DNA of 64,000 bases from Eledone cirrhosa. Lineage: Eukaryota. Below, piece after piece: positions 23,161 to 60,510 of this stretch. How positions within the stretch are numbered: the first letter of the stretch is position 1; each line of letters starts with the position of its first letter. The notes beneath the pieces were generated by a model. It saw only the letters and a list, made by a program, of their open reading frames with translations. It made no database searches and was not told the origin of the DNA. The stretch is taken from assembly GCA_964016885.1 (NCBI GenBank), contig OZ024753.1, positions 38,812,001 through 38,876,000 of the forward strand. Reading direction: 5' to 3'. The position numbers and the translations under genes were made by a program.

Positions 23161-23307
23161 CTCGGGATCAGTGGGAGGTAACCACGATAAGTTAGGTACT
23201 CAATACATTGTAGAATATAAATTGTTAATGTAGAAATGGCTTCTACATCATTCCTGATAATTTCCTTCGAATGAAACAGCCCTAGTCCTGTAGAAGCCAT
23301 TTCTGCA

Positions 23308-23312
<5 letters not shown>
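23161..23312. mobile_element. Family B variant with mutated hammerhead (CTGATAA, 23251-23295 plus)
   Basis: TTC-CTGATAA-TTTC-CTTC-GAAT-GAAA-CAG..CTG-TA/GAA; shares GGTACTCAATAC with family B. Confidence 0.65.
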
Positions 23313-23361
<49 letters not shown>

Positions 23362-23365
23362 CGTT

Positions 23366-23581
23366 ATTCCGGGTTGAATCGGAGGTAACCACAGTAAGTA
23401 AGGTACTCAATACATTACAGAGTATAAAAGTTTTAATATAGATGAGATTCTACAGGACTAGAACTGTTTCATTCTTTAGAAATCATCAGGAATCTGTGTA
23501 TCAAATTATTTTTTGATACCCAGATTCCTGATGATTTCTAAAGAATGAAACAGTTCTAGTCCTGTAGAATCTCATCTATAT
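23366..23581. mobile_element. Family B fold-back element with two intact hammerheads (23446-23494 minus; 23523-23571 plus)
   Basis: AGATTC-CTGATGA-TTTC-TAAA-GAAT-GAAA-CAG-TTCTAGTC-CTG-TA/GAATCT on both arms; flanked by (TA)n. Confidence 0.85.
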
Positions 23582-23628
23582 AAATATATATATATTATAA
23601 AACGTATTTATATAAATATATATATATT

Positions 23629-25124: not shown

Positions 25125-25147
25125 TATATATATATATATAGATAAGT

Positions 25148-25338
25148 TATTCCGGGTTGAATCGGAGGTAACGACAGTAAGTAAGGTACTCATTACATAG
25201 CAGAGTATAAAAGTTTTAATATAGATGAGATTCTACAGCACTAGAACTGTTTCATTCATTAGAAATCATCAGGAATCCTGATGATTTCTAAAGAATCAAA
25301 CAGTTCTAGTCCTGTAGAATCTCATCTATATTAAAACT
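25148..25338. mobile_element. Family B fold-back; intact HHR 25229-25277 (minus); plus-arm HHR has GAAA->CAAA
   Basis: Homologous to 23366-23581; palindrome centred at ~25275. Confidence 0.82.
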
Positions 25339-25481
25339 ATATATATATATATATGTGTCTGTGTGTGTATGTGTATATATGTATATATCCATTTATATAT
25401 ATAGAGTTATATATGTATATATAAATATGTATATATATATGTGTATATAAATATGTGTATATATATATGTATATGTATATA

Positions 25482-29452: not shown

Positions 29453-29525
29453 TTTATATATATATATATATATACATATACACACACATATATATATATA
29501 TTTATATATAAATATATAATTTTAT

Positions 29526-29603
29526 ATCGGGTTTAGTCGGGAGTAACCACAGTAAATAAGGTACTCAATACATGGCAGAGTATATATATTTAATATTTAA
29601 TTT

Positions 29604-29688
<85 letters not shown>

Positions 29689-29796
29689 GGAGAAATTTCA
29701 TATAGAAACGGCTCCTAGAACTATATTAAATATTTATACACTGCCATGCATTGAGTACCTTACTTACTGTGGTTAGCACCGATTGAACCCGGGATA
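29526..29796. mobile_element. Two family B terminal fragments in inverted orientation around TA/GA repeats
   Basis: GTAACCACAGTAAATAAGGTACTCAATAC at ~29543 and its reverse complement at ~29750-29776. Confidence 0.65.
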
Positions 29797-29866
29797 AACA
29801 GATATTCACACACACTCATATACCTACAAATATATATACATATATACATGTATTTGTATGCATATG

Positions 29867-31536: not shown

Positions 31537-31975
31537 TTACGATATTAAATAAATGGAAACTATATTTATAAAACCATATTTATTTCCATTATATATATTT
31601 CAGGGATATCATATTAACAATATGTTATGCCTTCTTCAGACAAAATACAATATAGACAGTTTTATAGATAAATAGATTTGACATACCGTTCAACATCGAC
31701 TTGTATTTGAAAAAGCTTTTCAAATACAAGTCGATGTTGAACGGTATGTCAAATCTATTTATCTATAAAACTGTCTATATTGTATTTTGTCTGAAGAAGG
31801 CATAACATATTGTTAATATGATATCCCTGAAATATATATAATGAAATAAATATGGTTTTATAAATATAGTTTCCATTTATTTAATATCGTAAATATACTC
31901 CAAATACTTGTTGAGTGCTTTTATATCAGTTATAAATATTTACTAGTTGTAACCCAACAATTTAAATATAACTTT
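31537..31975. mobile_element. Family D ~355-bp palindrome with hammerhead motifs on both arms (31588-31643 minus; 31786-31842 plus) plus a 3' tail
   Basis: Centre TTTGAAAAAGCTTTTCAAA (~31715); TTG-T-CTGAAGA-AGG..CCT-GAAA-TATA-TA/TAA. Confidence 0.8.
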
Positions 31976-58014: not shown

Positions 58015-58093
<79 letters not shown>

Positions 58094-58215
58094 AATATAG
58101 ACATAGAATATTCGAAAATACTCTGTATGTTTATAATAAACATTTTGAAGACCTAATCGCTATAGAATAGAATACGTCACGTATTACAATTAGATTCTCG
58201 ATAAAAGCAAGGGAA

Positions 58216-58258
58216 GTAATCTACGCGTTTCATTCTTGTTAGAATTCATCAGGACTAC
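58216..58258 (-). ncRNA. Type I hammerhead ribozyme, array copy 1
   Basis: Minus strand: GTAGTC-CTGATGA-ATTC-TAACAA-GAAT-GAAA-CGCG-TA/GATTAC. Complete core, 6-bp stem I, 4-bp stem II, palindromic stem III (ACGCGT). Predicted GUA cleavage between 58222 and 58221. Confidence 0.93.
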
Positions 58259-58525
58259 ATATCCAGTGCTTTTATCGAGAATGACACAGCTAGAGACTTA
58301 TAGAATACTTAGCTGTGTACAGGAACTGGTTTGAAAGAGCGGTTGCCGGTCCGGCAGAAATTAGAAATTGGAATAAATGCTCTGAAATAGCGATATATAT
58401 GTGAATATAGACATAGAATATTCGAAAATACTCTGTATGTTTATAATAAACATTTTGAAGACCTAATCGCTATAGAATAGAATACGTCACGTATTACAAT
58501 TAGATTCTCGATAAAAGCAAGGGAA

Positions 58526-58568
58526 GTAATCTACGCGTTTCATTCTTGTTAGAATTCATCAGGACTAC
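58526..58568 (-). ncRNA. Type I hammerhead ribozyme, array copy 2
   Basis: Same sequence as copy 1, offset +310. Confidence 0.93.
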
Positions 58569-58835
58569 ATATCCAGTGCTTTTATCGAGAATGACACAGC
58601 TAGAGACTTATAGAATACTTAGCTGTGTACAGGAACTGGTTTGAAAGAGCGGTTGCCGGTCCGGCAGAAATTAGAAATTGGAATAAATGCTCTGAAATAG
58701 CGATATATATGTGAATATAGACATAGAATATTCGAAAATACTCTGTATGTTTATAATAAACATTTTGAAGACCTAATCGCTATAGAATAGAATACGTCAC
58801 GTATTACAATTAGATTCTCGATAAAAGCAAGGGAA

Positions 58836-58878
58836 GTAATCTACGCGTTTCATTCTTGTTAGAATTCATCAGGACTAC
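58836..58878 (-). ncRNA. Type I hammerhead ribozyme, array copy 3
   Basis: Same sequence as copy 1, offset +620. Confidence 0.93.
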
Positions 58879-59145
58879 ATATCCAGTGCTTTTATCGAGA
58901 ATGACACAGCTAGAGACTTATAGAATACTTAGCTGTGTACAGGAACTGGTTTGAAAGAGCGGTTGCCGGTCCGGCAGAAATTAGAAATTGGAATAAATGC
59001 TCTGAAATAGCGATATATATGTGAATATAGACATAGAATATTCGAAAATACTCTGTATGTTTATAATAAACATTTTGAAGACCTAATCGCTATAGAATAG
59101 AATACGTCACGTATTACAATTAGATTCTCGATAAAAGCAAGGGAA

Positions 59146-59188
59146 GTAATCTACGCGTTTCATTCTTGTTAGAATTCATCAGGACTAC
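59146..59188 (-). ncRNA. Type I hammerhead ribozyme, array copy 4
   Basis: Same sequence as copy 1, offset +930. Confidence 0.93.
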
Positions 59189-59455
59189 ATATCCAGTGCT
59201 TTTATCGAGAATGACACAGCTAGAGACTTATAGAATACTTAGCTGTGTACAGGAACTGGTTTGAAAGAGCGGTTGCCGGTCCGGCAGAAATTAGAAATTG
59301 GAATAAATGCTCTGAAATAGCGATATATATGTGAATATAGACATAGAATATTCGAAAATACTCTGTATGTTTATAATAAACATTTTGAAGACCTAATCGC
59401 TATAGAATAGAATACGTCACGTATTACAATTAGATTCTCGATAAAAGCAAGGGAA

Positions 59456-59498
59456 GTAATCTACGCGTTTCATTCTTGTTAGAATTCATCAGGACTAC
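59456..59498 (-). ncRNA. Type I hammerhead ribozyme, array copy 5
   Basis: Same sequence as copy 1, offset +1240. Confidence 0.93.
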
Positions 59499-59886
59499 AT
59501 ATCCAGTGCTTTTATCGAGAATGACACAGCTAGAGACTTATAGAATACTTAGCTGTGTACAGGAACTGGTTTGAAAGAGCGGTTGCCGGTCCGGCAGAAA
59601 TTAGAAATTGGAATAAATGCTCTGAAATAGCGATATATATGTGAATATAGACATAGAATATTCGAAAATACTCTGTATGTTTATAATAAACATTTTGAAG
59701 ACCTAATCGCTATAGAATAGAATACGTCACGTATTACAATTAGATTCTCGATAAAAGCAAGGGAAGTAATCTACGCGTTTCATTCTTGTTTATTATAAAC
59801 ATACAGAGTATTTTCGAATATTCTATGTCTATATTCACATATATATCGCTATTTCAGAGCATTTATTCCAATATATATATAAGTTT

Positions 59887-60510
<624 letters not shown>

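Follow-up and report, generated by a model that had tools for sequence, protein, structure and literature searches.

The window analysed here is a stretch of 64,000 nt of the Eledone cirrhosa genome (assembly GCA_964016885.1, contig OZ024753.1, positions 38,812,001 to 38,876,000 of the forward strand). An array of hammerhead ribozyme units at 58093-59790 in this window is one arm of a head-to-head insertion, the second arm of which lies at 59787-59872. An earlier note on this DNA had seen only one end and overlooked the inverted second arm, with its own fixed start. The 310-nt retrozyme family to which the insertion belongs is real and young, and its architecture is the 'inverted copy plus tail' signature of Penelope elements on a retrozyme of the non-LTR type, which lacks long terminal repeats. 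The reading we favour, and hold to be probable, is that this is an insertion of a non-coding hammerhead retrozyme, with two back-to-back arrays and an 11-12 nt duplication, which borrowed a Penelope-like reverse transcriptase (RT) and endonuclease to prime both target 3' ends on one RNA, probably a 310-nt circle.

The first arm (58093-59790, RNA sense on the minus strand) contains 5.48 hammerhead units of 310 nt and is non-coding. The five full units were compared and no differences were found. The GC content of the array region is ~32-36%, and both unit size and GC content lie within the ranges given for non-LTR retrozymes (150-450 bp, <50%). The outer end of this arm is at unit position 1, at an AU motif. 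The left junction (plus strand, 58083-58100) reads ATATATAT-AA-GAATATAG, and its counterpart inside the unit (plus strand, 58393-58410) reads ATATATAT-GT-GAATATAG. The two are exactly in register, as the earlier note had claimed, and the same arrangement recurs at approximately 1,700-2,000 insertions genome-wide. The distance from the junction to the predicted ribozyme cleavage site, given before as about 130 nt, was measured as 129 nt, and the array does pass that site repeatedly, with six crossings, at 58221/2 and then each 310 nt to 59771/2. The bases TT noted previously at the junction (AA on the plus strand) are present, but they originate from target DNA and not from the element, because ATATATATATAAG flanks the insertion on both sides and its AG starts an older element, of family B. 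Non-templated addition was considered as their source and ruled out; identical bases recur on the right flank and at the start of family B.

The second arm is 86 nt long and inverted, with RNA sense on the plus strand, and its outer end is at unit position 275, with 2 nt of AT homology. The arms meet at an inversion joint (59787-59790) where a 4-nt microhomology, TGTT, is common to both. The (TA)n target tract forms the left flank (58031-58090). The left copy of the target-site duplication, ATATATATATAAG, is at 58081-58093 and the right copy at 59871-59883 (both plus strand), with lengths of 10-13 nt allowed at this locus. The array was inserted at the TA boundary of the family B element (59882-60050), an older, unrelated, hammerhead-bearing inverted element. 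Within the first unit, the tail from the long start site (unit 275-277) to the short start site (unit 309-1) occupies 58367-58402 on the minus strand and includes CTCTGAAATAGCG, and the internal AUAUAUAU motif (unit 301-308; 58393-58400, minus strand) lies at the 3' foot of a predicted long hairpin. At both insertion ends target bases directly abut the element, which would fit extension of two target 3' overhangs. When contigs from four runs were searched for an empty allele at the right junction, no contig bridging that junction, filled or empty, was found.

The same two ends are used throughout the genome, where the exact ribozyme 23-mer occurs 12,649 times in 3.0 Gb. The loci analysed, 41 in all, were the window locus, 27 found by unit search (six of them refetched longer) and the first 13 of the 23-mer listing on contig C1. 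All 68 resolvable outer ends were at or next to two intervals spanning ~8% of the unit. Short ends, at the AU site (unit 301-9), numbered 32, and long ends, at a second site, numbered 36, of which 35 were at unit 270-277 and one a few bases further in; three outer ends were left out because of gaps or fetch limits. Junction positions within the monomer are therefore non-random, as the earlier note had expected, but cluster at two fixed sites, separated by 26-36 nt. Twenty-eight loci had one long and one short end, one had two long ends, none had two short ends, six had a long end only, four a short end only, and two were not resolved. The one-long, one-short arrangement, ie an inverted copy with a 26-36 nt tail at one end, as in Penelope mobilisation, is thus found in 28 of the 29 two-ended loci (p = 6e-8 against random pairing). 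Genome-wide pattern matching gave 2,057 short-type and 1,690 long-type non-internal matches, with patterns that are blind to ends elsewhere and with ~2-3 rows per 100 listed resembling mutated internal units. Copies are ~99% identical between loci.

Duplication length was determined at 16 two-ended loci with interrupted targets, chosen by eye; three more fetched loci had no usable end. A duplication was present in 14 of the 16, and a length of 11 nt was allowed in all 14 and of 12 nt in 13. Dispersed copies with duplications of 11-12 nt agree with the >4 bp described for retrozymes. Inversion joints overlapped by at least 1 nt in 24 cases out of 31, and 22 of these overlaps were of 1-5 nt. Complex centres were observed at L044:963-1162, L058:2343-2520 and L072. 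Among them are arms separated by ~200 nt of unrelated sequence, an inversion joint whose duplication hints at template switching, and a mixed-haplotype locus.

The two arms appear to be copies of a single template. They were identical at shared positions in 25 of the 28 two-armed loci, compared with 27 of 703 cross-locus pairs (4%). Among the 29 loci with at least two full units there were 19 fixed haplotypes, and 67 variant calls were fixed against 25 that were not, the latter being mostly singletons. Both arms exceeded one unit in 18 of 28 loci. Arm lengths fitted an exponential distribution with a mean of about 4.2 units and a maximum of 16.7 (Kolmogorov-Smirnov (KS) p = 0.78), and inner ends were uniform over the unit (n = 72, KS p = 0.59). 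A monomer circle is the simplest account of the arm and haplotype data, and a circular template is likely. The earlier proposal that rolling-circle reverse transcription makes the identical tandem units therefore survives in part: target-primed copying of one RNA, probably a circle, fits the data, while guidance by annealing to the AU motif is unsupported. Three sequencing runs with different organism codes (X1, X3 and X6) each gave one 340-nt self-overlapping unit contig with no flanks. These contigs cannot separate a circle from a tandem array, diet, contamination, circular RNA and a wider host range all being possible sources, and they were not used. None of the runs listed is recorded as RNA.

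The favoured reaction would proceed as follows. A Penelope-like endonuclease would cut both strands of TA-rich DNA, thereby choosing TA. The enzyme, presumably a dimer, would grip the RNA at the tail with one subunit starting on each side, and both subunits would copy their way round the circle by strand displacement and finally drop off. Repair would then join the two cDNAs, in most cases through a microhomology of 1-5 nt. The two start sites would be picked by RNA structure or protein binding, and pairing of the last few primer bases, aided at the short site by the AU motif, would fix the exact nucleotide. A more elaborate form has a Penelope dimer clamping one circular ribozyme RNA at a conserved 13-nt motif in its tail, cutting with an 11-12 nt stagger and carrying out double rolling-circle reverse transcription, one subunit being homology-free and the other annealing the TA overhang to a selected, built-in template in the manner of telomerase. 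We put that form forward only tentatively and consider it on balance doubtful; if true, a single reaction would explain the retrozyme arrays as well as the inverted copy and the Penelope tail.

No open reading frame (ORF) with RT plus GIY-YIG domains was present in the array or in the window, so that the insertion is not itself an autonomous Penelope-like element. ORFs with RT and GIY-YIG-like motifs, recognised by eye, adjoin several loci, and one of the five scanned (L070) gave an RVT_1 match. Penelope-like ORF fragments beside insertions were seen at L103, L122, L006 and L076 (ORF ends and 3' regions), at L070:3527-4567, and at L007 and L119; the group of L103, L122, L006 and L076 likewise has long and short ends in (TA)n.

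Several observations weigh against two-ended Penelope priming on a circle. Four of the five neighbouring ORF fragments had no Pfam match, and their Penelope label rests on motifs seen by eye. An autonomous partner sharing the retrozyme ends was not found among the 3' regions of the five ORF-bearing elements beside fetched loci, no genome-wide search having been made. Two of the 16 interrupted loci, L205 and L206, have no duplication. For the anole Penelope protein in vitro, start sites did not differ from strand to strand (PMC11167929), unlike the near-obligatory differing ends found here. The arms differ in three of the 28 two-armed loci. Of the 72 inner ends, two coincide exactly with the cleavage site (p = 0.02), from which it follows that some templates had a cleaved 5' end. 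Both the circular RNA and ribozyme cleavage are predictions for this family, identical arms would equally be obtained from a linear multimer transcribed from a homogeneous parent array, and assembly polishing could homogenise units.

The earlier note had a nicked (TA)n strand annealing to the 8-nt AU motif of a circle, which would fix both the target and the rolling-circle start. Its expectation that copies are enriched in (TA)n was borne out, since (TA)4 lay outside the junction at 23 of the 30 ends at the AU site and at 21 of the 30 at the second site, compared with a background of 11.5% in the window. The explanation offered for this enrichment was not supported. The long end, with 0-2 nt of homology to the target and 992 exact TA-to-site junctions, lies equally in TA, and at L208 a non-TA target was primed at the same AU site. 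At the AU site the commonest start (721 junctions) is displaced by a further two bases and leaves a mismatch adjoining the primer end, while junctions retaining the GT of the element, as perfect pairing predicts, are the minority class (534). Target selection guided by base pairing would need extended complementarity to the target at all primed ends, which neither the long ends nor the mismatched or non-TA primers used at the short site bear out. Termini in TA with no more than ~2-4 nt of AT homology, as judged by eye, are likewise found in family B and in a Penelope-like family. Pairing does draw some support from the 32 of 68 resolvable ends at the motif, and from the position of the motif, which is unlikely to be due to chance: when dinucleotides were shuffled 2,000 times, an (AT)4 run ended within 15 nt of a fixed site in 0.4% of cases. 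Among the matches listed, 94 of 98 short junctions were in phase by eye (two were out of phase, two were non-TA, and two internal rows were dropped); however, element T residues 308, 310, 4 and 6 share one phase, so that a terminal homology of 1-2 nt gives the same register. Interruptions of the target by G, which is wobble-compatible, outnumbered those by the unpairable C by 57 to 38, an excess which is in the direction expected of pairing but not significant (p = 0.064); the 38 junctions with C show that unpairable bases are tolerated, which tells against pairing. A stronger bias in one listing (about 7 to 2) shrank to these figures genome-wide, and a control outside the duplication gave too few events (3 and 3, 4 and 6). 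The sister family A' has ATGTATACAT at the motif in most internal copies, and eight short ends (30 loci) are at the homologous position. This is not a clean refutation of pairing, because the A' motif keeps its purine/pyrimidine alternation and could still make 9 of 10 pairs. At L063 and L204 the unit occurs in a variant whose motif is lengthened to (AT)5. Longer pairing has not spread through the family, since this variant makes up a minority of ~8% of contig depth in run X2. The short site is at the foot of the predicted hairpin (z = -1.6, a weak value), and CTCTGAAATAGCG, which lies between the two start sites, is identical in the 310-nt family (family A) and in A'. Probably pairing shapes the last bases of the short start site and the AU motif does not pick the target. 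RNA-DNA pairing would then be at most a local helper and not a guide; base-pair-guided targeting is unlikely, and the full scheme of the earlier note we regard as improbable.

The other alternatives concern the template and the origin of the ends. Two-ended Penelope priming could have used as template a long linear RNA, transcribed from an existing array and left uncleaved, in which case homogeneous parents yield homogeneous daughters. Ribozymes of the type with a one-pair helix III cleave poorly as monomers (PMC7229834), the dominant substrate of the anole protein is unprocessed RNA (PMC11167929), and the two inner ends exactly at the cleavage site also suit a linear template. Such ribozymes nevertheless cleave efficiently as dimers in tandem transcripts (PMC7229834), arms reach 16.7 units with one array of more than 22, and variants are fixed across all units and both arms (the 67 calls above, against 25), which for new variants needs a single-unit bottleneck; we consider a linear template unlikely. 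It is still less probable, about on a par with targeting by the AU motif, that only the long site primes and that the short end arises when the endonuclease cuts a DNA intermediate at a TA-like motif of the element itself, so that the tail is lost. The pairing of one long with one short end would follow from this, Craig et al. attribute the tail to endonuclease-mediated resolution (PMC8557442), and the short site is AT-rich in families A, A' and B. At that site, however, bases derived from the target stand in place of those of the element both inside the motif and past it, up to unit position 3-4, and the duplication is constant at 11-12 nt, as expected if a target 3' end had been extended there, and both tail boundaries are starts of reverse transcription in vitro (PMC11167929). 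Enlargement of short insertions by later, local unequal crossover, in the manner of satellites, has been proposed for vertebrate retrozymes (bioRxiv 10.64898/2026.07.22.740005), and L074 carries two variants that are each common to two units. Given that the non-fixed variants are mostly singletons and that the two arms are both multimers, exponentially distributed in length and with partial ends at random positions, we find it very hard to credit here; the ~99% identity of the family across loci points the same way, with low power because the arrays are young. We conclude for two-ended Penelope priming that the endonuclease sets the targeting, that RNA structure or protein binding sets the sites, and that pairing only tunes the nucleotide.

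The hammerhead motif of the first unit (58202-58267, minus strand) is of type I (CUGAUGA...GAAA), with a one-pair helix III and a CGCG loop, and recurs each 310 nt; the sixth ribozyme of the array is incomplete. Cleavage of the first unit is predicted between 58222 and 58221. The motif matched Rfam HH9 at 23 bits (E = 0.002), short of the gathering score of 52, and an Rfam scan of the window at gathering thresholds gave no match; core and stems are complete as judged from the sequence. If cleavage in this family depends on dimers, as in amphibian-type ribozymes with a one-pair helix III (PMC7229834), it would cut tandem transcripts and spare circles. At the base of helix II, unit position 153 (window position 58245) forms a U-U mismatch in most haplotypes, A-U in the window variant and G-U in another, and with such variants the strength of the ribozyme may vary among lineages. 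Minimal hammerhead-like motifs of the form TCTGATGAAGG...GAAATATATATAA were also seen in other repeat families, some as inverted pairs (window 9658, 13667 and 31639-31791; L045, L075 and L009).

Two further families were encountered. Family B is an abundant, short, head-to-head hammerhead element in (TA)n, with long and short ends ~65-75 nt apart by eye, and it resembles the 310-nt family in helix II of its ribozyme and has AATATAGA at its short site in common with that family. Most of its copies, as seen at 30 loci, start with (TA)n-AAGTTT or (TA)n-GTTT. It is found in the window at 23163-23592, 25134-25345 and 29508-29805 as well as at 59882-60050, and at L138-L166, and a first look gave 2,737 candidates. 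Family A' (L167:460-823; L168-L197; 2,463 candidates) is an older sister retrozyme of ~314 nt with copies ~91% alike. It has a different hammerhead, yet the same hairpin, tail motif and two end sites as the 310-nt family, to which it is ~78-80% identical around the short site.

Two-armed retrozyme insertions with fixed paired starts were not found in the literature searched, which left most subscription journals and all supplements outside. Such insertions are kilobase palindromes without spacers, and may be a source of double-stranded RNA and of instability.

In L1 twin priming two target 3' ends prime on one RNA, and the second primer anneals at variable internal sites. The likeness lies in the outcome, an inversion with microhomology at the joint and a duplication on either side. 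In L1, however, the arms cover different parts of a linear RNA, whereas here most insertions are inverted, the site is fixed and the same unit is copied repeatedly.

The family resembles the metazoan non-LTR retrozymes (PMC7229834; bioRxiv 10.64898/2026.07.22.740005) in its non-coding tandem units of 150-450 bp with low GC and one type I hammerhead each, in an amphibian-like weak helix III with a palindromic tetraloop, in duplications of >4 bp, and in the proposed circles and Penelope-like dependence. Animal retrozymes have been proposed to depend on Penelope-like elements, with the mechanism left open (bioRxiv 10.64898/2026.07.22.740005). Circles and cleavage have been demonstrated for the retrozymes of those two papers, whereas the present family is known from sequence. 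Head-to-head arms, two fixed starts, a tail and a fixed duplication length are found here and not in the accessible parts of either paper, the word 'tail' occurring 0 times in that of the preprint.

Inverted copies, a tail of 30-40 bp at one of the ends and a preference for (TA)n have been described for Penelope-like elements (PMC8557442). The anole Penelope protein nicks and extends both strands, two internal RNA starts bounding the tail; it is a predicted dimer and, according to the accessible part of the report, needs neither target homology nor ribozyme cleavage (PMC11167929). With anole Poseidon (PMC11167929) and with Naiad and Neptune (PMC8557442) the present family shares two-strand cutting and extension, two internal RNA starts on either side of a 30-40 nt tail, an inverted 5'-truncated copy, AT-rich or (TA)n targets and a start near a stem-loop downstream of the hammerhead. 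Unlike Penelope, it has no ORF and both of its arms are multimers of one unit. One of its sites has up to 8 nt of target homology, in contrast to the homology-free anole sites as described (PMC11167929), the pairing of one long with one short end is nearly obligatory, and the duplication is nearly fixed where the accessible description has it variable (PMC8557442). The formation of the Penelope tail and inverted copy, and the re-entry of animal retrozymes into the genome, are stated to be open questions (PMC8557442, PMC11167929, bioRxiv 10.64898/2026.07.22.740005). With ~2,000 young footprints, starts defined to the nucleotide, a nearly fixed stagger and a 310-nt substrate, both become testable in one in vitro reaction.
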